From NCBI GenBank assembly GCA_012026655.1, contig JAAILG010000643.1, positions 1 to 64,000 of the forward strand: a DNA stretch of 64,000 bases. The letters run 5' to 3'. Source of the stretch: Hydrolagus affinis (lineage: Eukaryota). Shown here piece after piece: positions 653-63,782 of the stretch; position 1 is the stretch's first letter, and the number at the start of each line of letters is the position of its first letter. The notes below the pieces were generated by a model that had not been told where the DNA came from, did no database searches, and saw only the letters and a program-made list of their open reading frames with translations. A program made the translations under genes and the position numbers.

Positions 653-793
653 ATGGCTGTCCGGATAAAGCGTCACATTTGTCTCCCTGGAATCCTGGAC
701 ACAATGAGAAGAGGAAAGTTAAAATTGGACGTGGAGTATTCCTCCGATTGGAGTCTTCAGCCTCAATGCATTCCATTATTATAGAGCATGGAG
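653..793 (+). CDS. Gene 1 exon (G8 start)
   Basis: ttaatag|AT..GAG|gtgag; [27 protein letters not shown]. Confidence 0.92.
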
Positions 794-3700
794 GTGAGCT
801 TTAGGCTACTGTGCTAGTCATTCTTTGAAACAAACAAGTAAGTCTTCCCCTCACTCCCCCCCCCCCCTCCTCTCGTCCCTTCCCCCCATCTCTAAGTACT
901 ATACTTGGCTTAGCGTTTTAAGTAGCTGTACATAGCATCACTTTGCAATTGGAGTAAATTTCACACTTTCCATGAATATATTGGATCATATCATTTACCT
1001 TCACTCACCCTACCCTTCACCGTTCCACTGATAAGCTATGTATAGATCTGATAAAATTCCAGGGAAGATGATCTGAACACGTCTGGCATTTTATCTACTG
1101 TACTTGAAGGCTGGAGGTATTAGTCAGGACGTTATTACTAAACTGAAACAAACAATATTTACATAGATCTTTTGTTAGAATATAAATGATTATGATAAAG
1201 GGGGACTTATCCATCACTTAACAATTAATTGTTGTATGTTATCAATGGTTTTTTTTCCTCCCCCTCTCCCACAGGAAAGTTAGTATTTGCAGACAATCCA
1301 AAATCTGCCATCACTTTAAGAGCCAAATATATTCTGATTAGGAATAGAGGGGAGTTGCACATTGGCTCAGAAGGTTGTCCATACAGTTCTCTTGCTATAG
1401 TCACTCTTTATGGCAAGTCAACAGAGGGATGGAATGTGGAGAATTTTGGTAAGAAATTCATTGGCGTGGACAAAGGGGGAGTTTTAGAGTTACACGGTAA
1501 AAAAAGCATGTCTTGGACATTTTTAGCCAAAACCTTGTACCCCGGAGGTTTGCAACATGGCGCTTATCGTTTTGAGAAGCAATGGGGCACTAGAGGCATC
1601 AATGCTAGGATTATAGACCAAGGCACGGGTCAAGTCCTGGCAACTGAACGTTTCGATACCCACCTCTGGGTGAACGAGAGCAAACGTTTGCAGCAGTTTC
1701 TGCTACGTCAAGCATACGGGCGAATTGTAGCTCTGGCTGTTGGCGATTCTGCAGCAAGACATTTGACTTCACAAGCTAGAACCATCATCAACGAACTACT
1801 TGGGAGCAACCAAGTGAAATCTCTTAGTTACAGGTAAGATGCGTGCAAGCTTTTCATACACAAAGTACAAAAATAATCCTCCATTATTACAACAACAACA
1901 GAAAAATTACAGTTGTCCTCCCTTTCACGTTGGGAGGACGCCCCAAGGCGCTGGATAGTCAGTGCTTCATACATAGTAATGCACAACACTGCCAAATACC
2001 ATTTTGCACATACAATGCTTATATAAAGTTATTTTTATCAGCAATTTTCTGCCTCTATTTATACCTCATTGAGTGCGCTTTACCAGTATCTGTTTCATTC
2101 TGTCTCCTTATAATCTCTTGATGCAATTCAGAATGAGCCTATTCCACTACCATTTACACATTGTTATCTACCGATCTTGGTTTCGCCAATGGAGAACAAG
2201 TACTGTAGTAGAATACTAGTGGTTGATGGGAGCATCCAAGCACCTTTACCCACTCCCTGGCCTCCTTCAAGTCCTGCCTCAAGACCCTCCTCTTTGACAG
2301 TCCCATTGGTCACCCCAAATCCCCCCCTTTCCCTCCATCCTCCATGTCCCCGACTCCAGCTTGCTTCTGAAATAATGACTGTCCAGCGCCTTGGGAATGT
2401 CCTCTTGACGTGAAAGGCGCTATCCACGTGTAATTTTGTTGTTTTTGTTTAGAATTAAGTTCACGTAGTAAAAATAGTTATTTTTAAAGAGTATGGGAGA
2501 CTATCTTTCCCACATATACTAATGATATTTAAAGCACAATCATATTGAGTGGAAGAGGGGAGAGTCTGAGCATTGAAGAGTTGATCAAAGGCAAACTCAG
2601 AGAGGTGTTGGTGGTGTAGAGAGGATGTGAACAGAAGGCTATATTTCATTCTTAGGTTTTGGTTAATTGGGAGCAAATATTAATTTCAATTTGGCAAGAC
2701 AAGTGTTTAAATCAGGAATATAATAGTACTACTAATAATAATATGGGTAGCAGAGCACATCGAGCATCTTTTCATAGTGTGCTTAAACAAAAATCATTTG
2801 GAGCATTGTACATAAACAGTTGACACAATTTTCAGTATTTATTGTTTTCTGCTGGCCTTGTTCCATGTTAATAGTGGGGCTAAAGTATTAGACGGCTTTT
2901 TATAAAACACACACTATATTGTTCACGTGTATACAAATGCAACAATGTTTTGTACAGTATTCGTAAGCTAACATAACATTTTTTTTGCAGAGAAACATTT
3001 TAACCTTAACGGGGCCACAATGTTTTCATTGAATACTTTTGGTTTTAGGCCAAAGACTTCTAAATATTACAAAGGCATATTTTTTTAGACATTACAATTG
3101 GAGCCACCATGGACAGTTCCCAATGCCCTTATCGGGCAGTTTGCCAGGTTTATTCAAAGAAATGGTTATGTAGCAAAATAAAGACTCATGATAAATAATC
3201 AACCAAATCTAATTTATGTTTACTTTCAAAAGTACGGTGTTTGCGTGTGTGGGTATATATATATATATATATCTGCATTAAATACATAACCACACATTTA
3301 ATCTTGCTGGAGATGGAAAGTAATACCAAAACTCTAAATGCAAAAAAACCTTCAGTATTCATTGGTGACCTCTTATAATCTATGTTGTGGATTTTGGTGT
3401 TCTTCAGACAACCATGGGCACTTGTCGGAGTCATTGGCGTGCACACATTATTTGTTGTGGAAGATAAACGATCCTATCAACCTAATGGGTCAACAGGCAT
3501 GGCTCTGGCAAGAAGAGACTTTCAGACACATGATGGGATTCATTTTACAGTCACCGCCTTCAGTGAGTGGCTAAAAGGTAAATTCACATCATGTTGCAAT
3601 ATTTCAACTGTACAGTTTACTATGAAGTACAACAACAACAATAACAACTGAATTACATTTATAGAACGCCTTTCACGTCGGGAGGACGTCCCAAGGCGCT

Positions 3701-6700
3701 GAACACTTAGGACCGGACCCGAGCGGGTGTGGGGAGGCCGGGGTAGGGGGAAGGAGAGTAGGAGAGGGGGTAGAGTTAGGAGGGGAGCAGAAGGCATGGT
3801 CGAAGAGGAAGGTCTTGAGACCGGCCTTAAAGGAGGAAAGGGAGGAAGCGAGGCAAAGGGATTGCGGGATGGAGTTCCAGAGTGTGGGGGCAGAGAGGTT
3901 GATAGCCCGGCCACCAATGGTAGGGCGGTTCGGGCGGGGAACATGGAGCAGGCCAATGCCCGCTGAACAGAGGGGACGGGTAGGCTGATAGGGAGACAGC
4001 AGGTCGGAGAGATAGACGGGGGCAAGGCCATGAATGGCCTAGAAAGTGAGAACAAGGATCTTGAATTCAGTCCTCTGGGGGATGGGGAGCCAGTGGAGTC
4101 GGGCGAGGGTGGGAGTGATGTAGTCGCGAAGCCTGGTACGGGAGAGAACACGAGCTGCAGAGTTCTGAATAATCTGCAGCCTGTGAAGGGAGGAGCTGGG
4201 GAGGCCGACGAGGAGTACTCCCAACAGCAGCAACAACAACCACTTGCATTTGTGCAGTGCGCTTCACGTAGGATGCTGCATTGGTGCACTTTACAAAGGT
4301 GTAGTTGGACAAGGGGGAAGAGGAAGGTGCAGGTTGGAAATCATGACTCTGCAGCTTTCCTTTTCCATTAGCAGGTGTGCCTCACTGTGGATTCCGTGTC
4401 GAAGTGTCAAATGGCATAATTCTTGATTTGATGGACAAAGCTTCAAGCTGGTTGGCTGGTGGCCGCATAGTGATCGCTAGCACGGACTATTCCATGTATC
4501 AGGCAGAAGAATTTAATCTTATTCCCTGTCCCGAATGCAACATGAACCAGGTTAAAATTGATGGTATGCAATATTAAAATTCAAATTTCTGTTGTCTTTT
4601 TTCCACAAATAATTTTAGAAATTATTTTAATTATATTATTAATTTGTTTTATTGGAAGTATGGATTTTAATAATAGACTATTTAATAGTTTTACGTCCAT
4701 AGGAAGGACCAACTGGCATGTACTATATTTTCTTCCTTACCTATGGCTTGCCTTAGGATGTCCCAACATGAAAGGCGTTATACAAATGTTGTTGTTGTAA
4801 AACAATCAATTTGTTCTTTAATACATGCAGGTAAACCTCAGTATCTTCATATGGGTGAAGTTATAGATGGAGTAGATATGAGAGCAGAAGTTGGACTGTT
4901 GAATAGAAAAATAATTATTAAAGGAGAAATGGAGGACTCGTGTTATGGACAAAACCATTGCCATTTTTTCAGCTATGATACTTTTGGAGGGCAGATAAGG
5001 GTAAGTGTTTTGCAAAGCAAATTTTTCTTTAAAGTTTTATTCCCTTTTGTTCCAATGAGTTTTACCATGTAATTAAGCTTTCCCGTTTTTTGGTTAATGG
5101 GGATAATCCTTTATAAAGAAACATTTGTTTCTGAAGGGATATCTCAATGCACAACCTCATTATTTGAATATAAAGGGAACTTGTGTTGAAAGTATGACAT
5201 TCGTAGGCCATAGTTTGAATATTTTGTTTAGTTTGAGACTGCTCATTAAAGATTATGTGTGTTTACAACAACAACAACAAAATTGTACTTATATAGCACC
5301 TTTCACGTCCGGAGGACGTCCCAAAGCGCTGAACAGTCAGGTCGGGACCCGAGCGGGGGTGGGGGAGGGTTGGGGTAGGGGGAAGAGGAAGGAGAGTGGG
5401 AAGAGTTAGTGGGGCAGCCGAAGGTAGGATCGAAGAGGAAAGTGTTGAGACTGGCCTTGAAGGAGGAAAGGGAGGAAGCAAGATGGAGGGCCTGCGGGAT
5501 GAGCTGCGTGAATGGCCTAGAAAGTGAGAACAAGGATCTTGAATTCGATCCTCTGGGTGACGGGGAGCCAGTGGAGACGGGCGAGGATGGGAGTGATGTG
5601 GTCGCGAAGCCTGGTGCGGGAGAGTACATGTGTATTGTGTATGTATTGAGTGGGTGGTTGGAATCACCAAGATGTATTGACATATCAGACATACATTTCT
5701 CATGTATTGGCACAAACTGAATAGAATGGGAATCAAACTCCCAACTCTCAAGCCTTTCCTGTTATATTTTTAGCGAGCACAATTCAGCAGTGCAAGAACA
5801 ATTCAGTATGAATGTATTGTTGGTATTTATGCCAAGTACAGTAATATGGACTTTAATGACCACAATGCTTGCCCAAATCTTACTGCCATATTATATTTAT
5901 CCAGCAGATGTCAATGTTCTGAATTTCTAACTTAAAATATTAGATTTACAGTACTTTCATTCATCACCTCAATTTCAAACACTCTTCTTGCCACTCTAGA
6001 TCCTGAGAAATTTTACCTCAGTTCACTTATCTGGTGTAGAGGTTACGAACATGGGACAACAGATCCTGGGGAGTTACCCTGTACATTTTCACCTGGCTGG
6101 AGATGTGGATCAAAGAGGTGGATATTATCCACGTACATATGTTGACAATTTAGCCATTCACCACTGCTTCTCCCGATGTGTTGCTATACACGGAACTAAT
6201 GGTTTACTGGTATGTTTTTTAAAAAAAATCTTAATAATGTTTTAAGTTTCAATGACATTTCCTTCATTTTTAATGATCCGTGTATTTGATACAGCGCTTT
6301 TCACATCTTCTAGACATCTCAAATCGCTTCACAGATTATCCTGTAATGTGAATTGACTATATTTGTGGGCAAAATTTGGCAGCCAATTACACACAGCAGT
6401 GTCCCACAAACAGTCGATTGAGTGACCAAATTATTTTTTTTTTTTTAGGGATTATTATTAGGCGTGTGGAGTAAGGAAACTTGCCCAAGGGTTCACCCTA
6501 CCGGGAATTGAACCCAAGTCTCTCGCTCCAACGACTGAGCTATAGGACTGCATTTTGGACTCCCTATGGAAGAGTAGGGATGAAACCTAAATAGAAGTTA
6601 AATCTATCTAAATTGGGGAATACAATAGAATAGTCCCATGTTTGGAATCGGCAAAATATCTTCCAGAATTTCTGTCTGTAATTTACTGTAATATCTCTTA

Positions 6701-9700
6701 CAGTAAATTACATTCTACCATCTATTTAACTGTTTATCCAGTTATTTAATGTTTATCTAGATCCTAACAGGGTGACCATTAATTATAATATAGTGACATC
6801 TTCCAGATTTAATAGAAGGGTAAAAATAATTCCAACATTCAAATGGGAAAAATTCAACAAATCTGTTGTAAGAAACGATAATTATATGCAATTCTATATG
6901 GTATCTTAAAGGTTGATTTGATATTCTCATTTGTGATTTTAAAATGTCTATAGGGTAAATGGCAGGACTCATTCTTTGAATAATTTAGCATTCTCTAAAC
7001 TAAATGTAAAACATAACTAACGTAGTAAGAAATATCAACATTTGTTTTTCATTGGAAATATTTGTGTTTGAAGTTTATTGTAAAGTAAACTCCATTTAGC
7101 CAGATCTCAAAGTTGTTTGTAATCTACACCAGTCAATCGCCACTTTTAGGAATTATCTGTTAATAATATGCCTGAATATTGAAAGATTACATTTAAGTAT
7201 AATAAATACATGTTTTATAAGGTTTTTTGAAACAAATGTAATCCATTAGTGTTAATTAGAATTAATGGTATTTACCAAGTTTTTAAGAATTTCAGTAATT
7301 TGCATGCGTCAATGGCAACTGGCAAGTTAATTTTAATTTGCAAACAATTGGAAATTAGATTCATTCTCTATCTAGGAAGCGCTCAGCTTTTTGATTAGTC
7401 TTGAATTTTTCCTTATAATCTTATTTTTAAGGTCAAAGATACAATAGGGTATGACACTTTGGGTCACTGTTTTTTCCTGGAAGATGGTGTGGAGGAGAGA
7501 AACACGCTATACCATAATCTGGGGCTTCTTACAAAGGCTGGAACAATTCTGCCTTCTGATCGCAATGAAGTTATGTGTCTAACTATTCGTGAACAAGTAT
7601 ATGGAAATTATATCCCAATACCAAGTACTGATTGCATGTAAGTTGACCATAAATTATTATTGCATTAACATCTGCTTACACAAAGGAGACAGATCTTAAG
7701 ATCTTCTACACTTGAGAAGGAAACTAGGTACAGTACTCTAGTGTTAGTTATTTATGCAAGAGGAATGGGGATTTTATATTACACTTAATGATCAAATATT
7801 ATTTTGCCACAAATGTTTTGTCCACCAGTTTTCTTCCATTGATGCTTTCCTGAAAGTATTGACACGAGCTTAGAATTTAGTTCAGAGATAGACACATCGA
7901 AGGAATCTTAAGGGAAATTAAATGGGTAATTTAAATGGACCAATGGTCAACTCCTGTCTACCATTATTACTATATATACATGCATTACTCTAAACTGAAG
8001 AGATTGATGGTTTACTTCAACCTGACATCTGCTTCCCATTTATGTTTCCTGTATGCAGTACTTCACATTTATCTCCATTTAAGTTTATTTTCTAGTGATT
8101 ACTTCAGAGGTATAACCTGTTTAAGATATTTAAGATCATGATTACCTCAGCTGATTCCTCCCCCACCATAAGTTTACACCAGAGATGTTGCAATTTATCA
8201 GTTATACAGTATAAGCCAGTCAGTTTCAACTGCAATAGCAGTGCATTGATAATAAATACAAATGACTTAAAAACTAAAAGTTCTTAAATTGCTATTTGCA
8301 GGGCTGTCACAACCTTTTGGATTGCAAATCCAAATAACAACCTAATCAATAATGCTGCAGCCGGAGCTCAGGTACAACATGTTTTACTGACTTTAAACAT
8401 GTAAAAATAATGTACCCGTTTATACGTACAGTATTAAGATATTTTTAAAAATTAAATGAGGAGGGTGGTGTGACACCTCCAACGTTTCTCACCAATTAAA
8501 TTCAAGTTGTAGACAAAAATGTGCTTTTCAGCCCTGGCCTCACCAGTCATCTCTACACGGTTAGAAACCTGTCTTTTTAATTGTTATCAAATGCCCTCGA
8601 GATGCAAGCTAATATTTGATTAGCTTTGTTGATAATAGCTTCACATTGACGGTGAGCATAATGTAGATGTTCAACAGTCACACCGAAATCCTTCTCTTAA
8701 CGACTTAATCTGTGTTGTACAGTTTAGATTTCATTATCTATCCTTATGTTTTCCCCTTCCGACCCCATCCCCAGGACGTGGGCATTTGGTACATCTTCCA
8801 CCGAGTTCCCACTGGAGATTCTGTCAACCAATATCCAGAGGGACAGACTGAGTTTACTCCCCTGGGAATATTTTATAATAACCGGGCACATTCCAATTTT
8901 AAGGCGAGTAAAGCTTTGGTACTGTGCACTCCGCGTATTCAGTTACAAAGCCTTGATGTACATTGCGGTTGAACTCGTTTAAAAAGTGATTTTAGATATG
9001 ATTGGACGGGTTGTGACAAGTTAAAATTCTTGAGAAATGGCTCATGCAAAGGAGGTAATCAGTTGTTAGTTTCACTGTTAACTGACATCATATTTATTCC
9101 TTTGTTAATCGGTGGTGTGACATTGGTAATGTTATTATTATTATTATTATATGGCAAATGTACAAAGAATGAAGCACTTTCCCAAGCTAATGTATCATTG
9201 TTCAGCCAAAGATGTCCATTGCGGAGGACCAACCAACACTGTCACAAAGCACTGAATAAGCTGCCTTCTGTGCTGTAAATTTGTATAATTCGACGTGAAA
9301 ACTTTAAAGGTAGCAAAAGAGCTGGCAAATCATTAAAATCTAGGGGTTCGAGGTGGGGGGTGGGGAGAGCAGAGATGAGGAAGTACAAAAAATAAATCTG
9401 ATCCAAGTAATGAGTAATTTCTTTAGAAGAGAAGAGGGTGGAAGAAAATTAGGGCAGAAATGATTTGGCTGGGAGTGGATTGGGGTGTTGCAATGTGTTT
9501 AAACTGTATCACGAGTGTTACATACAGTTGTGAAATTATTTGAGTTGAAGAATGCAGCCATGGGACACAGCAACCGCGCTGCCTTGCAGTGCTTTTTTTG
9601 ATACAAGAAATACACTATTTTGCAATTACCACACCCAAATTGAGATTATATGGCACTAAATCCAACTTGCTGTCAGGTGAAATTTATCTGTTAAACAAAC

Positions 9701-37193: not shown

Positions 37194-37199
37194 AATAAA
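37194..37199 (+). terminator. Candidate polyadenylation signal of gene 1
   Basis: AATAAA about 130 nt after the stop codon; usage not proven. Confidence 0.55.
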
Positions 37200-38379: not shown

Positions 38380-38508
38380 TCTGCCCTGTTTACCAGTTTG
38401 ACTTTGAAGGATAGATATGGCACTGGGAGTCAATCTTTCCAGCCAGTTGCCCTGCAAGCTATGGTCCTAGCTAGACAGGCTAGGAAAACTTCTGAGTGCC
38501 TCAAACAG
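38380..38508 (+). other. Candidate non-coding 5' exon of gene 2 (start uncertain)
   Basis: Perfect donor CAG|GTAAGT at 38508/9 ends a locally more GC-rich stretch with a CCAAT near 38375. The ATG exon has an acceptor at 39585 that needs an upstream exon. Confidence 0.4.
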
Positions 38509-39677
38509 GTAAGTTTCAAGGTTTTCGCTACTTTGCCTTGGAGTCTTCCCTTGCCCTTCGGCGAAGAGATTTTGTGCTACAGAACTCTAGTCCTGTGAAT
38601 TCTAGAGATGCAAAAGGTTTATGTATGTGTCAGACTCTAGGCTGATCAAAAAGTATAATTATGCCATTGAAAGAGGAGCATTTTGTTAATATTGAAGACC
38701 TTTGAAATCTGGCTACTTAAAATCCTCAATATAATATGTGGAGGCAGAAAAGAGGTTTGCTGCTGAAAAAGATAGCATATTAAAACTATGACATATACAA
38801 ATGCTTATGGAAATCTATTGACAAAACATAAGAACTGTTTGAAATTCATACTGTTAAGCTCTGAAGGGGTTTATGATGAGTTGTTATGCATTTTCAACAG
38901 TTGAATAATCAGATTGATATTCATGGTGCCTCTAGCTTTTCCATATCCGCTTTTCAATTGCACAATTCTCCCAATTTAAAGTGGAAGAATTATCTAATAG
39001 TTTCAAGTTCAGCAAACAAAAGAGCCCGTTGGAGATATTTCCATGGAAGTTTATTTTTGCCAAGTTTTTAAAAGTATGTGAATTTTGTCCAAAAAATGAT
39101 AACTTCAAATATGAAATGCTACACTCTCTGGAGACTCAGTTAACAGGGTTTACCAAATACTGTAGTATGAGATAAAATTGGCCTCAATCAGCACTTTTTA
39201 AAAAAGATAGTTTTGAAGGTAAATTGAACCAGTCTCCAAGCAACTGCTGGAGTTTAGGATGGTAGTTTATGGTCCCTGTATTCCCTTCCCCGTTACGTAT
39301 GTATTCATGTGTCCACTGATGCAATTACTATCTGTAATATTGGTTTAGAATCACGAGACGGACTTCAATCAATACTTGAATCCAGTTGCTGGTGAAGATG
39401 GCTGATTAAGATTTTCAATTTGCCACTGACTTTTTTTTAACATATACTTTCTTAAACAGTCAATTATAAAAAGGGAGTTGCACAGACATTCTATCTTCTG
39501 AATATAACATTAGCATAGAAATCAAGTTTAAAGTCTTGTTTTAAATATATAAATGGCATTTTCTTTTTTATATATCTATATGCAGATGCTTAAAGTTGGC
39601 TCAATTGACCTGCAAAAGAAAGCACCGGTGATCAAACACTCTCCACTTTACTTATTATCTGCTGCATACTAAGTACA

Positions 39678-39744
39678 ATGAAGGCAATACTCCTCCTTTG
39701 CAATGTTGGCTGGTTACTGACAGAAGCATTTGCTCAATTTGGAG
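39678..39744 (+). CDS. CEMIP: CEMIP first coding exon (signal peptide); exon acceptor at 39585
   Basis: acaATG; [22 protein letters not shown] with an AFA cleavage motif; phase-1 donor GAG|gtaaa matches the next exon. Confidence 0.8.
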
Positions 39745-54700: not shown

Positions 54701-57700
54701 TGCACCATGCAATTGCTCTCTTGTTATAGTGTTTTTATGGGTAAAATTCTTTGCATTTTCTGCAGCACTAAAACTGTAAGGGAGTGATGTGATGATCCCA
54801 TCTCTTCGTCTAAAAGCAAATTCCCTGATTGAAAAATGATTCAAACCAAACTCCACTGGTTTTCCTCTAACAAATGCTAGGCTTTCTTCGTCAGTGAAGA
54901 ATTCAGCATGTGTATACTCAAACATCGATAAATACTGAGCTTCCACATCAAATTCATGCGCTATAAACTTCTAAAGCAATTGAATACATTCAGGAGATAA
55001 CTTTATACTGCCTGAGAATCAGTGGCATGTGGTGTAATGAAAAATACATGGGGTTAGGTCACCTGATGGTGTGCCAATAGCCAGAGATTCAGTCAGGCCA
55101 AATCAAAGTGTCCATCGAGAGACAACTAGTGTAGTTAGGGAGCGGGTGTTTGTGAAACGGTACTGTACCTTGTTTTTAAACTCTTCAATTGAAAACATGT
55201 TTCACAAGTAATTTCCTGTTATCAGCCACTGGAAAAACTTACATTTAGTCCTGTACCACATCATCAAATTTCTCCTGACAGCACATTGACTGGGGATTGA
55301 GTGTGTTTTTTTTAAGGTTCACATTTATGTATCTGTGATTTTTTTTTCAAAAAAAGAGGAGGTTAGGGAGTTTCGACCAATTCATTACAGTCTTTCTTTT
55401 TCAATTCCAGCTAACAAACTGATCTGCAAAATTATTTACATTTTTGTGGGTTTCAAAACCGAGAATATAAAGCTTTTGCCGAAACCTTCAGTGTACTATT
55501 ATATTTCTGATTACATTTCCAAGAGCTATCATCACATTTTAACTTTTTCGTTTCCCCTTGGAGAATTTCCACAACTTTCTCAAACTCTTCACTGGGGAAA
55601 TTACCCCATTGATTCCTCCAGTTCAGAGGAAACTTAAGTTTCCCTCACATCTTTCAAATAACGTTCACTTTGTTTTAAAACAAAAGTGCTGGACGCAGAG
55701 AAAACATAGTGTAGAATAGTTTGGGCGTATTTCATCTTTCATGCCCATGGTCGAAAATAAAAATATTTGTATTGCACTAATTGTCCATAATATCTTGTTC
55801 AGAAAGATTATTTTTAATGCAGAACATGTTCTCACGTTACTGTATTGGCTGCTGCCACCTGCTGATTTACAGAGGTCAGTGCCAGGCTTCCAATTCCAGA
55901 CCTGCTATTATGTTGTTTTCTGATTAGTCCTGTGCTGGCTGTTTTTCTTTAAAAAATTCCTTAAGGATTCTTTTCCCTTTAGGTGTGAGCATTGAATTGC
56001 ATCTTAAAAAAAATTACTCCCGTCAATTGTTTTTCTCATTCCATCTGGAGTCCTGTAGCTGAGTGGTTAGAGCACTCGCCTCGCAAGTGAGAGGACCCAG
56101 GTTCGTTTCCTGGGTGGGGTGAAACGTTAGGCAAGTTTCCTTACGCCACAACTTACTGTTTACCGAACAGTAAATAGGAACCCAGTTGTGAGTTGAATAG
56201 CAGATCGCTTTTCCGTGGGTAATAATTCCTTTTAAAAAAAAATAATATTTTGGTCACTCAATCTACTACCATTTGTGGGACAATGCTGTGCGCAATTGGC
56301 TGCCGTATTTCACCCACAAAATATACAGTTGTTTCACTTTACAGTATAGTGTGTGAAGCGCTTTGAGATGTCTCAAAGACGTGTTAAGACACTATTTCAA
56401 ATGCAAGGATTATTGTTTTTTTAAAAAAAAACCTTTCCCATTTTCTGACTCGTCCGTTTTGTTTCCCTCAACTGTATTTCAAAGCATGTCCATGGATCTC
56501 AACTGCCTCTTAGTATAATCACTGACACGTTCACCCAGTGCCATTCTTTTTTTATTAACTTTCCATCCTCCACTCAGCAGAGATCACCAGCTCCCAATGG
56601 CTGCCGGTTCAGTTCTGACGAAAGGTCATGTCCAGGATGATAAGTGCTGACAGACTGACCTTACTGTAGATTTGCAGTATTTTTGTTTTTTTCCCCTTAT
56701 TTCCAGCGTTCTCAGAAGTGTTTTTGTCCCACTTTTTTTTAATATGACTGTAGCTGCCACGTTTAAGGCCAATTTTCAACATTCCAAGCATGTCTGTTGT
56801 ACGTGGAGTGAATTGTATCAGTCCACACCGTGCATCCATTAATACAATCCAGACGGAGAGAAAAGTGACATGCTGGCTTCCGGCCATTGTTGAGCAATCT
56901 GAATTCATTTCATCCTACTTGGGATTTAATTCTCTTCACACCAGTAATCCTGATACAATTCTAAAACGACTCTGAAGCTTTGCTATGTTTATTATTCCCC
57001 ATGCAAAGACTAATGCTCACACACGGTAACTTTAAATTAGAATTCTGTGCAAAACTTCGGTCAGGCGGTTCCTTGGCACCATCACATCAGCAGAATAAGT
57101 TAGATTTATTGCAACAATACAGCAAATATTGTCAATTCAGAAATTGAAGGTGTGATCTGAACAAGGGGAAGGAGGAGGCAAGGTGGAGGGATTGAGCAGG
57201 AGAATTCCATAGTTTTCAGAGGTTGGGGCTGAAAGCACAGCTCAGTAAAAGCTGAGTAAAATGAGTTACAATTAAGTACCGTAATGCTAAAGGCACTGAT
57301 AACAGTAACCTGCACAGAAAACCCGATGCACTGCGTGAATATTGGAAGAGAAAGTAAGGATGGAACACCTTGTTGCTCATTCACTTGTGCATCGGGATTT
57401 TCTCAGTCATGCAACAAAATGTATTGCTCAGTTTACATTGTTTATTCACCCCAAACCACAAGTATATTTTGTTTCAAATTGAGAAAATGTAATAAACATT
57501 ATTTATAACTTGAACTGTGGGTTTGAACGCAGGATTCCTTCTGCTGTTCAGCGGGTCATGTCACCACTAGTCGCCAATGGCCATTAGTTTGAAAATTCCC
57601 TTGGCGGCATAGTGATGAAAGTATAAATTCATAAAGCTTCTTGGCCCAACATGATTTATGTAACCACCAGTGTAGGCCACAGAGACAGGGAGAAGTTTTC

Positions 57701-60700
57701 AGTCTGTGATTTTATACAGTTTCAAGACAAAAAGCTGAATTATTTCTTTTCGAAATTGTGTGTCTGGTGTCTGGAATTAGATCATTATAACTTCAATTCT
57801 GTACTGTGGCCAGTGTTTACATGTTATTACCAAGTCACAAATATGTATTATACCAGCCTACGTAGCCGCCATCTGTGGGCGAGAGACGACCACAAACGAT
57901 CAATCTCTTTAGATCTCCATATCCTCTCTAACTCCCACCCTCCCCTCGTTTAAGACACCATCTCAAAACATGCCTCTTTGAGTACACTTTTGGTCAACTT
58001 TCCCCTCCCCACCCACCTCGGCCCTCACCTGCATCTGATGTGGCCAGCGAGCAGTGTCAAGTGCTTTGCGACATCCTCCTGACATGAAAGGCATTATATA
58101 CAGTATTTACAGTATCTACATTGTCAAAGGCATCATCATCATATTCATTGAATGCGAGTGTGTATACTATCGGAAACATGAATTACCTGCAAATGGAGAG
58201 GTCGCTGCCCGCAATGGGTTTAATTAACTGAAGACAGTTTCAATGCCAAGGCTGGAAGATCACCATCTAAAATTTCATTTAATTCCATTCTAATGGACCA
58301 GTCTGCAAGCTTTTTCTGTTACAATTAATGTAACAACATATTATAAATTCAAGTGAAATTTTTTTACCATGACTGGTATTACATTTTGAAAGCTTATCCT
58401 GCAATCTTGAGTGATTAAACTCACTGAATGATATGTGGTGTGCCTTGCTGAAACGTGACTAATTATTATTGGCATCGCCTTTCAGGTTGCACGTATATAT
58501 TTGCTTATTTCAAATACAAAGCATGTTGATCTGTTTGGCTGCTTAAGGTGTGGCACACAGCCAATGATAATTGTTGATTGTCACCATGCCAGCAGCAAGC
58601 AGTAAAGACACTAATGAGAAAGCAGAGCGGAGATGATTGCACCCGATGCCATAAATAAATAAAGCATAAACAATTTCTCTCGCTATCTCTATCTAGGTGA
58701 AAGATGTCATTGGCTACAATACCCTGGGGCATTGCTTCTTTACTGAAGATGGGGCTGAGGAACGAAACACATTTGATCATTGCCTGGGACTGCTGGTCAA
58801 GGCAGGGACCTTGTTGCCTTCAGATCGGAACAACAAGATGTGCAGTTTCATAACAGAGGGAGCCTACCCGGGATACATCCCAAAGCCCAGGCAGGACTGC
58901 AAGTAAGGAGTAACTTGCGTGCCTTTTAAACACGTATTTCCCAAGTCATTGTTAATTTAATGTGGTTTGAAAACAAGGAGGGCCTAGAAAAATTGTAGTC
59001 CAGCATAATGTCTTTCCCATTTGTGCATGTTGCATTTTACATTTACAGATACTCGTGAATTTGTGGGTTTCCACTAGCCAGTGAAGTTTTCCAACTTTTG
59101 TTAATGTCCTATAGCTTATAATGGGATCGCTTTATATAGTATTATTTGTCATATATATTATTTCTTGTTGTTATACCCAAGGTCAGTAATTTCACAGAGC
59201 GGCCAAATAATTTGTTCAAACACATGAATGCATTATTTCTCAATGTTCAGGTATGATCAAAACTGAGCTACACTGACCAGAAAGTTTACAATAGGCTGCC
59301 TGATTGCAAATCAGTATCCTGGATCATGTATATGCCTCAGATGTATAGCCATATTGAGCATATTATGGTCATAAAGTTGCATCCATAAAACTGATATCCT
59401 TAGGAGGTTCCATCTGGAATGTATCCCTATTTATAAGTTAAGACATGGAGCCTCACTACATTTCTGGAGTCAATCCAGGCTCGGTAGCCCTAAGCCTTCA
59501 ACCCTAGCAAAGTGATTTGTAGAGAACTGCTAGTTACATTAAAAAAACGAGTACATTCTGCATAGTTATATTACCCAGAGCAATGTAGATTGTGGGTACA
59601 GGATACTGACAACGCACCACAAATCATATACAGAGCCATCAAACTAATTACACTTGACATTTTTTTGATAGTGGGCACTTATTTCCAATGCCAAGTATTT
59701 TCAGTTCATGCCTAGTAATGGATTTGTTGTTGTTTTGACATTGAATTCCTAACAGTAACCCACACATTTCTACATGGTAAAAAGGCTACATGTTTAGCTA
59801 AACAAGTAGCTAATGGGAACACGCTTCAAGAGGAAGCTGGAGGATCTGTACAGCAGATGGTTGGATTCAGATGGCTATGGGTCCTGGCACACAGAAGACG
59901 TCCATATGGAACCTACCCAGGGCGTTTGTTTTATAGGACTCAAATTCCCAAGTAACCCTATAAAATGGATAGCCTGGGAAAGCTCCACCTGGAAGGTCCT
60001 TGTTTGTTGGACGTCTCCATCCATTTGAGCAAGAAATCAATGATTCCATTGCTCAGCAAGGCATTCGAATGTGAATATTTGAAAAGTGCTTCTATTGCAG
60101 TAAGCAGCTACTGTATTTAGATATCATGAATATGCATGGCTTTTAGTGTCCTCTAAAACTGCTGCCACACTGATCATATGTTTATGATGGAACTTATTTA
60201 GGGTAGCTATAAGATCCAGGAAGTGGACTTGTAAAGGATAGCTCTACACTGCATCTTTTCCTTGCTCCTATTGCTTCAATATTGTCTTTCTCACTGTCTA
60301 CTGTCAATCCAAGGAGCTCATATTTTGCTGCAATCGAGGTTCAAAGCAGCTTGTTTGTCAATAATTCATGTGCAGTCAATTCACTGTGTCATGAATAAAC
60401 AACATCACATCACTGAATATCTAGAACAACTGCAAGGGCAAAATTTGTTGCAATGTTCCCTTTATGTCACTTGCATCAGTGCCCAATAACAAAAACAACA
60501 ACTTGGATTTATATAGCACCCTCCACGCCGAACGGAGTCTCAGAGTGCAAATTATGGCAATATCCCAGAACCGAAAAAGCAGGAATGTTAGCGAGAGAAA
60601 AGGAGATTGAGAATAGTTACATATAGAAGTTATCTCACAACCCAATATATTTCTGATATGGTTTTCGGTATTCAGACACATGTGGAATCCATCCCCCAGG

Positions 60701-63700
60701 ATATCAAAACCATACTAGGATGTCCAAGCGCCCACCTTCACATGGAAACTCCCATGTTTTGGAATGAAAATGCACGCTTTCTCCCTGGACTGATGCATTC
60801 TGTTTGCCCAATTCTGGAGAATATCGGGCACAGGTTGGCAAGACCCCAGGTTGGGAAACTCAGGTTGTACATTGAGGTACTGCAGGGATTTAACAGGCTA
60901 AAACCATATAGCTTGCCCTTGAAAGCATTGTCTGGCACGCCATTCCATTGCTTGTCTCTATATAACAGTTAGGCATCAGGGGACCAAAACATATTAAAGT
61001 TTGGAATTAATCCATCGAATCTAGTTATTATTCCATTTTATTTGCTAACAGCAGTAAATTTGCCTGTACGTGGGACTATTTTGATTTATTTGCCAAGGTC
61101 AATTTCCTGACGTGTATAAAATCCCCAATAGAATTTTAAATGAGAAATAACTAATTGCAACATTTAATTTAACCACAGAATTCATGCAACACATTTGTTT
61201 ATAAGTGCAACACCAAAAGTTCATCTGCTTTGGGAAAGACGTAATGGAAAGCTAGGAGATTCCATTCCTAATTTTTTGATCTTCCTCTCAGAAGCAAGAA
61301 TATAAACTTGTTATTACAATGAGTAATGCAAACATATACCCTTTTATTTGGAGCTTTAAAAAAAAGTTTATAGTTGAACTTGTGACGTTAGTTGTTAAAG
61401 AAATATTACAGTTGTGCGCAAATATAAACGCCAGCTTTAATTAAACTCAAAGCCGCTGCAATTATTCTGGGTATATTTTGACTTTAATTTTGCATATCAT
61501 TTGGATGCAGATTAGAGAAAGCACAATTCAGATTATATTGCCATTGTAAGAATCTTCTGCTGTAAATTGTATTTATAGCATATGTTAGTATTTCATTACA
61601 GATTTCACGAACAATCAGCTGGCAGGGATATTAAGCCATTGCAGAATGATGTACAGTACCTTAATTCCTCTTTTCCCTGGTGATATTTATTTGGTACTTA
61701 AAACCAGGAGGTTCTGCACTAAATATTGGAGGTCTCTGGTACATAGCTCTTGCAAATTGAAAAGTGCCTTGTTTGGCGAAACGGGTTTAAAAATAATTGT
61801 CGTATCATCCCAAATGCTGAACACGATGAAATCTATCACCTTGGGTGTTTCACTGAGGCTTCCCTTGATGATAATGATCCTTACATTTGATATAGCGCCT
61901 TATCACATCGTTGAGATGTCTCAAAGCGCTTTTACAGAATGTACTGTAAAGTGAATTCACTGTGTATTTTGTGGGTGAAATGCAAAATCCCTTGCTCTTA
62001 GAAATAATAAAACGAATGCTGTGAAGGCTGACTGTTCAGCGCCTTGGGAGGTCCTCCCAACATGAAAGGCGCTCCATTGAGATGCTGATTACACTGATGG
62101 CAAATTTATGTGGAAGAATTCATGAGCTGCAGAAATTAGTTCCCCATTCGTCAAACCATCCTGTTTGATGATCCATGGTTCTGAGCTAAAAAGGCTAAGC
62201 AAGGTTTCAGTTGGATGCATCAGTATAGCCCTTTGCTTTAAGTCCCAACACTAACTGAGCTAGGAATTATAGAATTATTTGGCAAGAAGAGCTTTAAAAA
62301 TAAAAGAAAGGACCACTGCTCTAATTATTTTGTGGCCAAAAAAACAATATGAAATTGATCGGGCTCTTAATAAACCAGTTAAACTCGCATTCTCTGAGCA
62401 CAAATTTTCCTTTCATCAACCTTAACAAACAAGCTCTGAATTGGGGTTAGAAACTCAGTGTTCTTATGCCTTGTGAATCGTTTCTTTATTTTGTTATTTA
62501 ATGGCTTCCAACAAGGGATTGACTAGCTTGATAGGAATGTCATCTGCTTTTATTAAGGACTATATTCTACCTCCTCCCCCACCCCCTCCGCCACCCACCT
62601 CAACCAGAGTACAAAAGGTTGAAATATTGAGAGTAAAACCTTATGAGCCAGTACCCCATGCAAAGGGTCCGAAATAAATGCAAGTTGTTATATTAACATG
62701 AACTGATAATCCATTAATTTACCACAACAGGGTTGACAAACTTAACAAATGAGAAATACCTCACCTTAACATACTAGTTGTGAAGATGCAATGTAAAATT
62801 GGGCTTTCGTTATCAATTCCATTCTGCGACACAATTAGACTTGTTGCCTCCGGCTCAATCTCAATGTCTTTAGTTCTGGTGGCACAGAAGAGGGAATCCT
62901 GCAAAGAGCATCAGGTTTAAAGCATTAAAAACAAGGAGAAAGGGGCGTTTAGGAATAGTTGGCAATTCAGATGTAAAAACAAATTCCCTTTTAGTAGTTG
63001 CCATGACATGAACTCACTAATGCAAGTGATTCTTACAAACCCTGGGATATTGGGTTCCCTTTGAGTGTTTGTGTAAAGTGTAAAATATGAATAGTGTAAC
63101 ATTTACTTTGCAACAGGGAGACGTACAGGAAGAGAAAAATGAAAGGCGTAGAATGAGCTAACTAGTTTCCATTAATACCTCAATCTGTAAATTCACAAGG
63201 CTAGGTTACATATTGTGCACCGTAATGAAATGTTCTGATTAAACAGTTTATCAAATGCAAGTACAGTATTATTATTATTTACCCCTCATTGTGAAAATTG
63301 ATCTTATTAAAAATGATATCCACACAGAATTCCCTATTGGTGTTTATTAACCTATGCCTTGTTTAACTTTACCTGGCTAATAATATGGTAACGGGTCGGG
63401 CATTATGAAATGATTAATGAAACATTCTTGGTTTTGTTACAGTGCTGTTTCCACGTTTTGGATAGCTAACCCAAACAACAACCTCATCAACTCTGCAGCT
63501 TCAGGCTCTGAAGTATGTAAAGCAATCTTCTATCCCACATGTTACCATTTATTGTTCCGCTCGAGTCACGTGGCAGTATTTTAATCTGTGTATCTAATCC
63601 AAAGGAAAAATACCTTTTGAAGTTTTGAAGTCATAAGAATTTTTATGTTGCAGGAAACCGGTTTCTGGTTCATTTTTCACCACGTGCCTACTGGGCCCTC

Positions 63701-63782
63701 GGAAGGAATGTATTCCCCTGGTTATTCCGAACACATGCCACTGGGAAAGTTCGATAACAACAGAGCTCATTCCAACTTCAGG
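39678..63782 (+). CDS. CEMIP: Gene 2 (3' partial): cell migration-inducing hyaluronan-binding protein CEMIP/KIAA1199/HYBID, first 15 coding exons
   Basis: 15 exons join in frame (2178 nt, 726 codons): signal peptide, [36 protein letters not shown], WxxW domain, PKPRQDC and [16 protein letters not shown], all recalled as CEMIP-diagnostic. The gene continues beyond the window. Confidence 0.93.
40925..41037 (+). mobile_element. SINE 3' tail fragment
   Basis: tatacagtcaattcacttta..tatatcaaatgcaaggattatta; another copy at 41360-41463. Confidence 0.75.
41173..41310 (+). CDS. CEMIP: CEMIP exon
   Basis: acaag|CT..GAG|gtatt; [29 protein letters not shown]. Confidence 0.9.
41691..41832 (+). CDS. CEMIP: CEMIP exon (G8)
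   Basis: ttgcag|GC..AAG|gtaaa; [33 protein letters not shown]. Confidence 0.93.
41941..42177 (+). CDS. CEMIP: CEMIP exon
   Basis: cgtag|A..CAA|gtgag; [33 protein letters not shown]. Confidence 0.94.
42447..42626 (+). CDS. CEMIP: CEMIP exon (GG1)
   Basis: ataaag|G..CAG|gtacg; [31 protein letters not shown]. Confidence 0.93.
42657..43076 (+). mobile_element. Deu-core SINE (headless) interrupted by a C/T-rich insert of about 150 nt
   Basis: SINE body continues on both sides of 42843-42996. Confidence 0.75.
46001..46071 (+). CDS. CEMIP: CEMIP exon
   Basis: ttgaag|G..AAG|gtaac; [20 protein letters not shown]. Confidence 0.92.
46200..46430 (+). mobile_element. Degraded L2 3' fragment
   Basis: GLLHVPR..FSY..CNSIP and FKAHFKTYL remnants. 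Confidence 0.6.
46582..46677 (+). CDS. CEMIP: CEMIP exon
   Basis: aacag|GT..AAG|gtaag; [16 protein letters not shown]. Confidence 0.9.
46972..47093 (+). CDS. CEMIP: CEMIP exon (WxxW/CysD domain, first half)
   Basis: ttgcag|AC..CAG|gtaaa; [31 protein letters not shown]. Confidence 0.93.
47356..47503 (+). CDS. CEMIP: CEMIP exon (WxxW/CysD domain, second half)
   Basis: tttag|GCA..CAG|gtttg; ..[22 protein letters not shown]. Confidence 0.92.
49015..49206 (+). CDS. CEMIP: CEMIP exon
   Basis: tgcag|TG..GTG|gtacg; [26 protein letters not shown]. Confidence 0.93.
49606..49708 (-). mobile_element. Penelope-associated short repeat carrying a minimal hammerhead motif
   Basis: The minus strand begins TGTT-CTGATGA-A-GGGTC-GTG-GACCC-GAAATGTT-GACT; body shared with 21297-21431. 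Confidence 0.72.
51132..51454 (-). mobile_element. Full-length tRNA-headed Deu-core SINE
   Basis: Minus strand: GGAGCTCCTGTGGCTTAGTGGTTAGAGCAC..TGCAAG..GTTCGAATCC (A and B boxes, Ala-like TGC loop), core, (TTA)n tail. Confidence 0.9.
53095..53405 (+). mobile_element. Old DeuSINE remnant containing a nested L2 tail (53192-53238)
   Basis: gagatgttaaac..cagctggac/gttaagacccc DeuSINE-like body split by an L2 tail flanked by TGGAC repeats. Confidence 0.6.
53500..53642 (+). mobile_element. CR1 LINE 3' tail
   Basis: gctctttcaaagagcc..gatgggccgaatggcctcc..attctatcattctatg. Confidence 0.78.
53745..53914 (+). CDS. CEMIP: CEMIP exon
   Basis: ttacag|GA..AAG|gtaca; [23 protein letters not shown]. Confidence 0.93.
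54052..54261 (+). CDS. CEMIP: CEMIP exon (PbH1)
   Basis: accag|ATG..CTG|gtgag; [28 protein letters not shown]. Confidence 0.94.
54325..54443 (+). mobile_element. SINE 3' tail fragment
   Basis: tttcacccacaaaatatacagtgaattcac..aaatgcaaggattatt; a reverse copy is at 61868-61985. Confidence 0.78.
56047..56416 (+). mobile_element. Full-length tRNA-headed Deu-core SINE
   Basis: GGAGTCCTGTAGCTGAGTGGTTAGAGCAC..GGTTCGTTTCC head, gtgggacaatgctgtgcgcaattggctgcc core, aaatgcaaggattatt tail. Confidence 0.9.
57870..58100 (+). mobile_element. Degraded L2 3' fragment
   Basis: ctcaaaacatgcctctttg..gacatcctcctgacatgaaaggcattata. Confidence 0.65.
58697..58902 (+). CDS. CEMIP: CEMIP exon (PbH1)
   Basis: atctag|GTG..CAA|gtaag; [31 protein letters not shown]. 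Confidence 0.95.
61868..61985 (-). mobile_element. SINE 3' tail fragment
   Basis: ataatgatccttacatttgatatagcgcc..ctcaaagcgctt..gtgggtgaaa. Confidence 0.78.
63443..63512 (+). CDS. CEMIP: CEMIP exon
   Basis: ttacag|T..GAA|gtatg; [23 protein letters not shown]. Confidence 0.93.
63654..63782 (+). CDS. CEMIP: CEMIP exon (last in window)
   Basis: ttgcag|GAA..AGG|gtagg; [25 protein letters not shown]. Confidence 0.94.

Follow-up and report, generated by a model that had tools for sequence, protein, structure and literature searches.

A CEMIP2-like gene beside CEMIP in the chimaera Hydrolagus affinis, a probable third member of the CEMIP/TMEM2 family

Results

Two genes of the CEMIP/TMEM2 family in tandem

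The window analysed here is the whole 64,000-nt stretch (positions 1 to 64,000, forward strand, of contig JAAILG010000643.1; Hydrolagus affinis assembly GCA_012026655.1). It carries two paralogs on the same strand, a CEMIP2-like gene (gene 1) followed by the CEMIP ortholog (gene 2; Table 1). The first-pass annotation had placed them about 2.6 kb apart, and the distance from stop to ATG is indeed 2,612 nt. It had also called both genes intact-looking; this holds for their open frames and splice sites, but both run off the window and neither is complete. With the family queries used, only these two genes were found in the window.

Table 1. Features of the two-gene locus (positions in the window)
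Feature	Position	Strand	Description
Gene 1, CEMIP2-like, almost certainly a third paralog	653..37065	+	Identified by open frame, splice sites, C. milii identity and tree position
Gene 1 coding exons 1-8 in window	653-793, 1275-1833, 3408-3577, 4375-4563, 4831-5000, 6000-6209, 7432-7637, 8302-8371	+	
Gene 1 coding exons 9-16 in window	8775-8903, 10255-10340, 12652-12783, 12911-12946, 14709-14861, 14988-15165, 16809-17024, 19924-20132	+	
Gene 1 coding exons 17-22 in window	28964-29146, 31502-31724, 32299-32400, 34995-35155, 35513-35622, 36878-37065	+	
Gene 1 first exon in window	653..793	+	Internal phase-1 exon; opens the G8 part of the beta-helix
Gene 1 559-nt exon	1275..1833	+	Remainder of G8, then the first half of lectin-like (ILEI/GG) domain 1
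Gene 1 GC-AG intron	8904..10254	+	Sole non-GT donor among modelled introns of both genes
Gene 1 stop codon TAG	37063..37065	+	Shark and ray relatives terminate in the same region
Intergenic stretch, 2,612 nt	37066..39677	+	AT-rich
Candidate polyadenylation signal of gene 1, AATAAA	37194..37199	+	No other AATAAA lies between the genes
Pyrimidine tract and AG at 39584-39585	within 39556..39677	+	Probable splice acceptor, ~92 nt before the CEMIP ATG
Gene 2, CEMIP (KIAA1199/HYBID) ortholog	39678..63782	+	92.5% identity to C. milii P0104; continues beyond the window
Gene 2 coding exons 1-8	39678-39744, 41173-41310, 41691-41832, 41941-42177, 42447-42626, 46001-46071, 46582-46677, 46972-47093	+	
Gene 2 coding exons 9-15	47356-47503, 49015-49206, 53745-53914, 54052-54261, 58697-58902, 63443-63512, 63654-63782	+	
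CEMIP first coding exon	39678..39744	+	Short hydrophobic, signal-peptide-like N-terminus, judged from translation; nearly the same in P0104
Two CEMIP-specific exons, 122 and 148 nt	46972..47503	+	Code for the WxxW insert absent from gene 1

The 22 coding exons of gene 1 form a single open frame (1,272 whole codons), whose product shows 91.0% identity to Callorhinchus milii P0001 across 1,237 aa. All 21 internal introns have an AG acceptor and 20 have a GT donor; the remaining intron, with a GC donor after position 8903, was modelled because frame and homology require it. The first exon in the window matches residues 312-360 of P0001, and the ATG at 653 was ruled out as a start codon, being out of frame and directly after an AG acceptor. 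Relatives extend about 300 residues further N-terminally, and a tblastn search of the window with their N-terminal 315 residues gave no credible match (best E 0.17). Gene 1 is incomplete in the window: about 300 N-terminal codons are missing, and its 5' exons lie upstream.

The 559-nt exon of gene 1 encodes the equivalents of TMEM2 residues R265, D273, D286 and D316 and matches the TMEM2 structure PDB 8C6I (E 3.6e-57), while the equivalent of these 559 nt in CEMIP is split into three exons (142+237+180). G8, ILEI/GG lectin, CEMIP beta-helix and domain X all scored above the Pfam cut-off in P0001 and four other relatives, the queries being P0001 (91% identical to gene 1) and relatives rather than the spliced gene 1 product.

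The 15 coding exons of gene 2 run from the ATG through to 63782, giving 726 codons without a stop, and the window end truncates the gene at about 53% of full CEMIP. A search with its exon 4 returned CEMIP in all 105 named rows. Besides its signal-peptide-like N-terminus and its likeness to P0104, which falls inside the CEMIP clade, gene 2 has the WxxW insert, which we take to be PF13330; this family is precomputed on most full-length CEMIP rows and on 0/103 rows of the CEMIP2-type search. Gene 2 itself was left out of the trees because it is partial.

The intergenic stretch has no CpG island (CpG observed/expected 0.14-0.55 over six 500-nt windows). The probable acceptor at its end implies that a non-coding first exon of CEMIP lies still further upstream. 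Residues 1548-1579 of P0001 match 39583-39678 (tblastn, E 8e-5), and this Callorhinchus model of gene 1 terminates in a reading of the stretch just before the CEMIP ATG.

The two genes are old homologs and almost certainly not an assembly product

Exon lengths of 170, 210, 206, 70 and 129 nt are identical in both genes, just as the initial annotation had listed them. These five exons share 57-70% DNA identity, and eight of nine testable gene 1 introns have a gene 2 counterpart with identical aligned codon and phase. Apart from interspersed repeats, the window showed no repeated segment but a single 94-nt exon match at 76%. The likeness of the two genes is old homology, neither chance nor a duplicated assembly segment. 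We consider the chance that the junction is an assembly artefact to be negligible: the window is without any N, homologous exons are too far diverged, P0001 continues past gene 1 into the same pre-CEMIP stretch, and the pair recurs in other species (see below).

A third clade, sister to CEMIP2, includes gene 1

A maximum-likelihood tree (IQ-TREE, LG+F+G4; 39 rows x 1,192 columns) resolved three clades, CEMIP (100/100), CEMIP2 (99.8/100) and CEMIP2-like (100/100). The last unites gene 1 with CEMIP2-like proteins of sharks, gar, coelacanth, amphibians and sauropsids, and is sister to CEMIP2 (100/100). The same topology was recovered by FastTree with 58 rows and with 4/4 outgroup sets. Gene 1 is 63-68% identical to CEMIP2-like proteins versus 55-57% to CEMIP2 in 6/6 species or group comparisons, and 46-48% identical to CEMIP.

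One alternative is that gene 1 is the plain chimaera CEMIP2 ortholog left beside CEMIP, with no third gene. Its architecture is of CEMIP2 type (no WxxW insert, large second exon), it is nearer to CEMIP2 than to CEMIP, no cartilaginous-fish CEMIP2 occurs among the best 120 of 654 matches, and the SH test, which is more conservative than the AU test, does not reject gene 1 and sharks with CEMIP2 under PMSF (p 0.079). Nevertheless, gene 1 falls outside the mammalian and sauropsid CEMIP2 clade in the trees and with every outgroup set, and the AU test rejects gene 1 and sharks inside CEMIP2 (p 1e-6; 3e-6 under C20/PMSF) as well as amniote CEMIP2-like with mammal CEMIP2 (p 6e-56; 1e-57). Pogona, Rhea, Hemicordylus and Coturnix carry both types, Pogona having all three genes, and the C. 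milii counterpart has a clade-specific N-terminal domain (E 2.7e-30) seen in no CEMIP2. We therefore judge this alternative to be very improbable.

Also at odds with the tree is a local tandem duplication of CEMIP, in which the CEMIP2 likeness of gene 1 would consist of retained ancestral states. Adjacency and common introns would suit it, the root of the tree depends on distant outgroups, and SH fails to reject CEMIP2-like with CEMIP (p 0.11; 0.13). However, the AU test does reject this grouping (p 1e-86; 1e-7 under C20/PMSF), the sister relation to CEMIP2 holds at full support with all outgroup sets, and gene 1 is closer in identity to CEMIP2. This origin is quite improbable. Nor is gene 1 a CEMIP ortholog: it lies outside the CEMIP clade and lacks the WxxW insert.

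Taken together, gene 1 is, with little room for doubt, a distinct third paralog of the CEMIP/TMEM2 family, and the earlier proposal of a CEMIP-linked gene distinct from CEMIP2 stands. The accompanying claim that the family arose by a tandem duplication still preserved here can be refined: a tandem is kept, but because gene 1 is sister to CEMIP2 and not to its neighbour, the pair most plausibly dates back to an older split between CEMIP and proto-CEMIP2.

Distribution and linkage of the third gene

The CEMIP2-like clade comprises 83 named rows from chimaera to birds, including sharks, gar, eels, amphibians, lizards, crocodilians and birds. No mammal is among them, in line with the earlier suggestion of a possible loss, and 17/17 mammal rows in the same family search are CEMIP2. 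The absence rests on one word-filtered protein search, which may miss members, as turtle, snake and non-elopomorph teleost rows are also lacking from CEMIP2-like. A separate CEMIP2 in the chimaera genome is to be expected from the tree. Also as foreseen, database records of these proteins bear automated labels of the 'cell surface hyaluronidase-like' kind.

CEMIP2-like and CEMIP share the same listed contig size in 6/6 species giving both (Hypanus, Discoglossus, Mixophyes, Hyperolius, Ambystoma and Pogona), which indicates the same chromosome, not adjacency. In Bufo bufo, model P0027 (1/83 rows) is CEMIP2-like in its 5' part and CEMIP in its 3' part, with the join at a homologous exon border; this implies that the toad has the two genes in the same order and on the same strand. 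Linkage to CEMIP thus extends beyond this genome. CEMIP2-like and CEMIP2, on the other hand, differ in contig size in both testable species (Rhea 25.5 vs 82.5 Mb; Hemicordylus 30.4 vs 429 Mb).

Published gene lists place CEMIP on chicken GGA10 with TMC3...MESDC2, ABHD17C and ARNT2 (PMC10035218), and CEMIP2 in a horse window with ABHD17B and TMC1 (PMC8532986). Paired neighbours of this sort, ABHD17C/TMC3 for CEMIP and ABHD17B/TMC1 for CEMIP2, are expected from block duplication. Gene 1 is not located as a CEMIP2 ortholog is, beside ABHD17B and unlinked to CEMIP; it is 2.6 kb from CEMIP, its other flank lying outside the window. We hypothesize that an early tandem duplication placed CEMIP and proto-CEMIP2 side by side, and that a later chromosome-scale, probably whole-genome, duplication copied this block. 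The ABHD17C copy would have retained both genes, giving the present locus, and the ABHD17B copy CEMIP2 only; absence from mammalian protein sets suggests later loss of the third gene there. We hold such a genome-duplication origin of gene 1 versus CEMIP2 to be likely. A single-gene duplication of CEMIP2 that moved beside CEMIP is unlikely: the tree by itself cannot separate the two modes, and the family queries found no flanking gene in the window, but the paired neighbours speak against it, and a chance landing beside a relative on the same strand would be improbable.

N-terminal anatomy and predicted secretion

Secretion and cleavage are read from relatives, as the gene 1 N-terminus is outside the window. 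In full-length relatives there is a signal-like segment, in many cases a furin-type site as well, and a two-cysteine domain of about 90 residues that has no family match. An HMM of this domain matches 40/455 proteins, all CEMIP2-like, amounting to 40 of the 83 named rows; many other models begin at G8 or have odd 5' ends, and in Aldrovandia and Megalops models the hydrophobic segment leads directly into G8. The segment, judged from hydropathy only, lies about 150-250 residues ahead of G8, whereas a CEMIP2 ortholog is expected to carry a type II transmembrane anchor immediately in front of G8. Its best 21-residue hydropathy is 1.22-2.20 in 27 relatives versus 2.21-2.77 in 115 CEMIP2, with cartilaginous-fish values approaching the CEMIP2 range. 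A dibasic motif, picked after viewing the sequences, occurs in 19/27 linkers versus 1.4 expected by shuffling; it stands 33-34 residues before the N-terminal domain in all 10 cartilaginous fishes and is mostly absent in birds and gar.

Unlike membrane-anchored CEMIP2, the protein would most likely enter the secretory route via the short hydrophobic segment. In sharks and frogs it would then be trimmed at the dibasic furin-type site, and the released protein would carry the small two-cysteine domain ahead of an intact TMEM2-type ectodomain. Judging from these sequence features, the CEMIP2-like protein is likely to be secreted or shed.

Residues implicated in hyaluronan turnover

Mutation of R265, D273 and D286 abolishes mouse TMEM2 activity (PMC10276149, PMC10206443). 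These residues are kept in gene 1 (R, D, D) and in 82, 81 and 82 of 83 relatives, and the D316 and R345 equivalents are also retained. H248 and A303, jointly needed in mouse TMEM2 (PMC10276149), correspond to Y and R in gene 1; they are not diagnostic, because H and A occur in only 33/116 and 11/116 CEMIP2 rows, and both positions also vary in CEMIP.

The gene 1 product probably acts in hyaluronan turnover. Hyaluronan, or a similar glycosaminoglycan, would be held by lectin domain 1 and cleaved either by the beta-helix or by a partner protein. Catalysis by the family is disputed, with PMC10206443 and PMC10276149 against it and PMC10474455 in favour. It is possible, if less probable, that the third paralog is non-enzymatic, a lectin-like hyaluronan adaptor or CEMIP regulator as proposed for human TMEM2. 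The purified human ectodomain was without activity (PMC10206443), the Y/R pair departs from the mouse requirement (PMC10276149), and the retained residues sit in a lectin domain thought to bind rather than cut. [quoted passage not shown]

Possible co-regulation with CEMIP

In chicken shell gland, log2 changes are +7.56 for CEMIP, +6.06 for LOC415478 'transmembrane protein 2-like' and -3.56 for HAS2 (PMC6347800). Chicken GeneIDs of MESDC2 (415475) and KIAA1199 (415476; PMC3999959 supplements) suggest LOC415478 as a close neighbour, and it is a probable ortholog of gene 1, assigned by name and GeneID, not sequence; the name 'TMEM2L' is used for CEMIP as well (PMC10883155). Joint regulation of the third gene and CEMIP is probable.

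A bolder and rather doubtful extension would make the third gene product a secreted, furin-matured hyaluronan-degrading protein with a domain of no known family, encoded in one regulated transcription unit with CEMIP. The gene would be nested in the CEMIP first intron or joined to CEMIP by read-through splicing, for which the acceptor at 39585, the Callorhinchus model and the Bufo chimera give some hint. On this view it would be CEMIP's ancestral partner or its soluble counterpart, at work in tissues such as the bird shell gland, and its loss would have altered mammalian hyaluronan turnover. If true, it would provide a natural soluble enzyme for settling whether the fold is catalytic.

Discussion

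The best overall explanation, to which we assign a probability of roughly 75%, is a jawed-vertebrate-wide third CEMIP/TMEM2 member that arose by block duplication and encodes a secreted TMEM2-type protein. The proteins are already in databases under automatic names; the literature searched gave no description of a third gene, and the records searched only automatic 'CEMIP2-like' labels. The field counts the family as two genes, and reviews (e.g. PMC11275217) mention no third. A third gene conserved from chimaeras to birds alters the history of the family. Work in chicken, frog, gar and shark may confuse three genes named TMEM2, TMEM2-like and CEMIP, or overlook redundancy after knockdown. There is no direct bearing on human biology, as no mammalian copy was found. 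For the dispute over TMEM2 as an enzyme, the gene would supply a TMEM2-type ectodomain that is unanchored by nature and probably secreted; it also brings a new small domain for study and a starting point for work on eggshell formation.

Among known systems, CEMIP2/TMEM2 (PDB 8C6I) is the closest. As its sister clade, CEMIP2-like shares the order G8, lectin 1, beta-helix, domain X, lectin 2; gene 1 keeps R265, D273, D286, D316 and R345 and 21/25 ectodomain cysteines of Rhea CEMIP2, and neither has the WxxW insert. CEMIP2-like differs in forming a separate clade (53-58% identity within species), in lying on another chromosome in 2/2 testable species, in not being found in mammals, and, in full-length relatives, in a shorter hydrophobic segment (versus a 21-residue anchor), a dibasic site and the extra ~90-aa domain. 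With CEMIP/KIAA1199/HYBID, gene 1 has in common the fold, the locus, 8/9 testable introns and probably the secreted mode; it is however only 46-48% identical, without the two WxxW exons and three introns of the G8/lectin region, and not its sister. Records auto-annotated 'cell surface hyaluronidase (CEMIP2)-like' or 'transmembrane protein 2-like' (RefSeq, UniRef) are orthologs of gene 1, although 'CEMIP2-like' is a similarity label only and some are misnamed TMEM2 or CEMIP. The classical HYAL clusters (GH56; HYAL1-2-3 and HYAL4-HYAL6P-SPAM1) are unrelated to CEMIP/TMEM2 in fold and family, but offer a parallel in history: a tandem cluster came first and its duplication later (PMC11275217).

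Structure of the tandem

The tandem is a real feature of the window, and the main inference of the first-pass annotation, which had seen a head-to-tail CEMIP2-like gene (gene 1) and CEMIP (gene 2) and a candidate third family member, is supported and sharpened. The two genes lie 2,612 nt apart, in agreement with the initial estimate of about 2.6 kb. They had been called intact-looking, but both are incomplete in the window: gene 1 enters it with an internal exon at 653, and CEMIP ends at about 53% of its full length. A start codon at 653 was rejected, being out of frame and directly preceded by an acceptor, and no 5' exons of gene 1 were found within positions 1-652.

All five exon lengths originally noted as shared are equal in both genes, with 57–70% DNA identity. 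Introns coincide in codon and phase at 8 of the 9 testable positions, and the 559-nt exon of gene 1 equals three CEMIP exons (142+237+180). The whole window is free of N and of long duplications of near-identical sequence. Identity is 91.0% between gene 1 and its Callorhinchus milii counterpart (P0001) and 92.5% between gene 2 and C. milii CEMIP (P0104), which makes another chimaera the most likely source of the DNA; the latter value is for the model with the exon 7 acceptor still at 46552; after comparison with P0104, this acceptor was set at 46582.

Features of the window
Feature	Position	Strand	Description
Gene 1	653-37065	+	22 coding exons, 1,272 whole codons in one open frame, TAG stop
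Gene 2 (CEMIP)	ATG 39678 to 63782	+	15 coding exons, 726 codons, without stop
GC donor	8904-8905		After gene-1 exon 9 (GC-AG intron); GT donor in the homologous CEMIP intron, after 63782
Acceptor-like site	about 92 nt before CEMIP ATG, within 39556-39677	+	From sequence
Short upstream ORF	within 39556-39677		ATG near 39586, stop before CEMIP ATG
Partial exon duplication, small	47585-47645		60 nt from the beginning of CEMIP exon 47356-47503, repeated in the next intron; 87% identical, E 3e-18
tRNA-like Rfam match	56056-56113	+	Inside interspersed repeat; read as tRNA-derived SINE, unrelated to the tandem
tRNA-like Rfam match	51382-51448	-	As preceding
Copies of related repeats	6271, 23849, 25222, 25920, 40924, 51136, 54330, 56258
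GC-richer repeat with (CAA)n ends	3635-4260, 5265-5630		Two copies, 82–93% alike; presumably resembles the 3' end of a LINE2-type element
Further copies of (CAA)n-ended repeat	about 10650-10930, 12000-12550, 32500-33020

Gene 1 belongs to a third clade

Trees were built from proteins picked for taxon spread out of 475, namely 57 for FastTree and 38 for IQ-TREE (LG+F+G4, 1,192 columns), each with gene 1 added and with unnamed distant records as outgroups. Both methods recovered three clades; in the IQ-TREE analysis, SH-aLRT/UFBoot support was 100/100 for CEMIP, 99.8/100 for CEMIP2, 100/100 for the gene-1 clade and 100/100 for CEMIP2 plus the gene-1 clade; the topology was unchanged in all four alternative outgroup sets. 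The maximum-likelihood tree places gene 1 outside CEMIP2, in its sister clade, and upholds the initial claim of a paralog distinct from CEMIP2.

Three other arrangements were compared using constrained trees under LG and LG+C20 PMSF. The AU test rejects the placement of gene 1 and sharks inside CEMIP2, the grouping of the third clade with CEMIP, and the grouping of amniote third-clade members with mammalian CEMIP2. The SH test is less decisive: the tree with CEMIP as sister has p values of 0.11 and 0.13, and the tree with nesting in CEMIP2 has 0.043 and 0.079. All three genes are present in Pogona, and the third gene and CEMIP2 are both present in Rhea, Hemicordylus and Coturnix; the two share 53–58% identity in six comparisons. 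Judged from the trees, gene 1 is neither a CEMIP2 nor a CEMIP ortholog; judged from its architecture and key residues, it is a member of the CEMIP/TMEM2 family. Because third-clade members of chimaeras and bony vertebrates form one group that leaves out bony-vertebrate CEMIP2, the separation of the third gene from CEMIP2 is older than living jawed vertebrates. One long-branched protein, P0225, is sister to all jawed-vertebrate CEMIP (100/100). It is possibly the CEMIP of a cyclostome, in which case the split between CEMIP and the CEMIP2 type would be earlier.

Taxonomic distribution

A query with gene-1 exon 2 returned 103 proteins, the upper rows of which come from sharks, rays, coelacanth, lungfish, gar, bowfin, sturgeon, eel and tarpon, and from frogs, salamanders, lizards, crocodilians and birds. 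All upper rows but one outscore mammalian CEMIP2. The gene-2 exon query returned only CEMIP. A snake CEMIP2 query returned named CEMIP2 of reptiles, birds, a frog and mammals, and no cartilaginous-fish CEMIP2, among the best 120 of 654 matches; placing eight unnamed fragments yielded neither a cartilaginous-fish CEMIP2 nor a clear extra lineage. Over the three queries, the 309 named rows comprise 83 CEMIP2-like, 121 CEMIP2 and 105 CEMIP proteins, with 20 unnamed rows left out of this classification.

No mammal occurs among the 83 named third-clade members, and all 17 mammalian rows from the gene-1 exon 2 query are CEMIP2. These protein rows suggest that the third gene was possibly lost in mammals, although the same list likewise lacks turtles, snakes and most teleosts. 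Outside the eel group no teleost member was retrieved, and none came from turtles or snakes; further losses are possible. Many more distant proteins (P0226-P0370; 30–47% identity) have the same beta-helix and varied N-termini, and genes called ‘cell surface hyaluronidase-like’ or ‘transmembrane protein 2-like’ appear in papers on oyster and coral; the family therefore extends beyond vertebrates.

Linkage to CEMIP and origin of the tandem

The linkage of gene 1 to CEMIP, first read from this contig, is borne out elsewhere. In all six species giving both, the third gene and CEMIP lie on contigs of the same listed size, which shows a shared chromosome rather than adjacency; the third gene and CEMIP2 lie on contigs of different listed size in 2 of 2 species. 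One of the 83 rows, a Bufo bufo model named CEMIP (P0027), switches from third-gene to CEMIP sequence around residue 1059, at a homologous phase-0 exon border. Whether an annotation join, read-through or a real fusion, this model implies the same gene order and strand in the toad. In P0001 of C. milii, the normal C-terminus is replaced by a translation of the stretch just before the CEMIP ATG, so that the close spacing holds there too.

The CEMIP and CEMIP2 regions presumably arose by vertebrate genome duplication, with human ABHD17B and ABHD17C directly upstream of CEMIP2 and CEMIP, respectively. Published lists of genes place chicken CEMIP in the vicinity of TMC3, with MESDC2 on one side and ABHD17C on the other (PMC10035218), human CEMIP and ABHD17C at 15q25.1 (PMC9836357), and horse CEMIP2, ABHD17B and TMC1 in one window (PMC8532986). 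The simplest history would begin with a tandem CEMIP/proto-CEMIP2 pair, subsequently copied as a block, after which the CEMIP copy beside CEMIP2 would have been lost.

Regulation and expression

Because an acceptor-like site precedes the CEMIP ATG and the 2,612-nt intergenic DNA contains no CpG island, the first exon of CEMIP is expected elsewhere, possibly upstream of gene 1. Human CEMIP has a distant non-coding exon 1.

In chicken shell gland, CEMIP (log2 +7.56) and LOC415478 (‘transmembrane protein 2-like’; +6.06) both increase and HAS2 (-3.56) decreases (PMC6347800), and LOC415478 reappears in a second uterus study (PMC10398974). Chicken MESDC2 and KIAA1199 carry the GeneIDs 415475 and 415476 (PMC3999959), which suggests, without proving, that LOC415478 is the neighbouring third gene.

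Previous descriptions

RefSeq and UniRef already hold the third-clade proteins, with names assigned automatically; as the first-pass annotation anticipated, the upper rows of the exon 2 query read ‘CEMIP2-like’, ‘cell surface hyaluronidase-like’ or similar. Full-text literature, a coverage outside which most subscription journals fall, yielded no description of a third member and no paper on ‘CEMIP2-like’. The names CEMIP3, tmem2b, cemip2b, cemip2l and cemip-like do not occur in the two works matched, where ‘TMEM2-like’ is used in the context of PKHD1L1. The name ‘TMEM2L’ doubles as an alias for CEMIP (PMC10883155). Two reviews, scanned by term, name no further paralog (PMC11275217, PMC12423501). 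No tie to the third clade was found for a tortoise ‘cell surface hyaluronidase-like’ (PMC7449761) or Xenopus LOC100491930 (PMC5035141), and PMC9897032 was rejected as a lead since it concerns TMEM263. We provisionally regard the third clade as undescribed, although it may already be visible in the gene trees of Ensembl or OMA.

Protein anatomy and predicted function

The ectodomain of the third gene has the same domain order as TMEM2. Mutating R265, D273 or D286 is described as abolishing mouse TMEM2 activity in PMC10276149 and PMC10206443. Gene 1 retains each of these residues (TMEM2 numbering); among 83 relatives they are conserved in 82, 81 and 82, respectively. Gene 1 also keeps D316 and R345, which by likeness to POMGNT1 would be lectin site residues, and has Y for H248 and R for A303, two positions that vary across all three clades. 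In CEMIP exon 4 (41941-42177), chimaera CEMIP has N at the D273 position and a one-residue gap nearby; N stands there in 15 of 91 CEMIP rows, and mouse TMEM2 is reportedly inactivated by D273N. The third-gene protein may cut hyaluronan by itself; for TMEM2, intrinsic catalysis is disputed, with PMC10206443 and PMC10276149 against it and PMC10474455 in favour.

Full-length relatives begin with a short hydrophobic segment, a linker and a roughly 90-residue domain in which two cysteines are invariant, followed by G8. When 455 proteins are compared with a profile of this N-terminal domain, 40 match, every one a third-clade member; the other 43 named third-clade rows, mostly partial or odd 5' models, do not have it. 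In P0035 (Aldrovandia) and P0046 (Megalops), the hydrophobic segment leads directly to G8. The domain had no Pfam match (five relatives), no NCBIfam match (four), no usable ESM Atlas match (two queries) and a single chance-level PDB match (E 0.093). By eye, small residues often follow the hydrophobic segment in bony-vertebrate relatives, as in signal peptides. A dibasic motif, chosen after viewing the data, follows the segment in 19 of 27 linkers, where 1.4 would be expected, and lies at a fixed distance in 10 of 10 cartilaginous fishes; it is a putative furin site.

Given this N-terminal anatomy, the dibasic motif and the kept lectin residues, we predict that the protein is secreted or shed, binds hyaluronan by lectin 1 and takes part in its breakdown. 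Gene 1 probably works like CEMIP/TMEM2. In full-length relatives the N-terminus is unlike those of CEMIP2 and CEMIP, and the hydrophobic segment is weaker than the CEMIP2 anchor.
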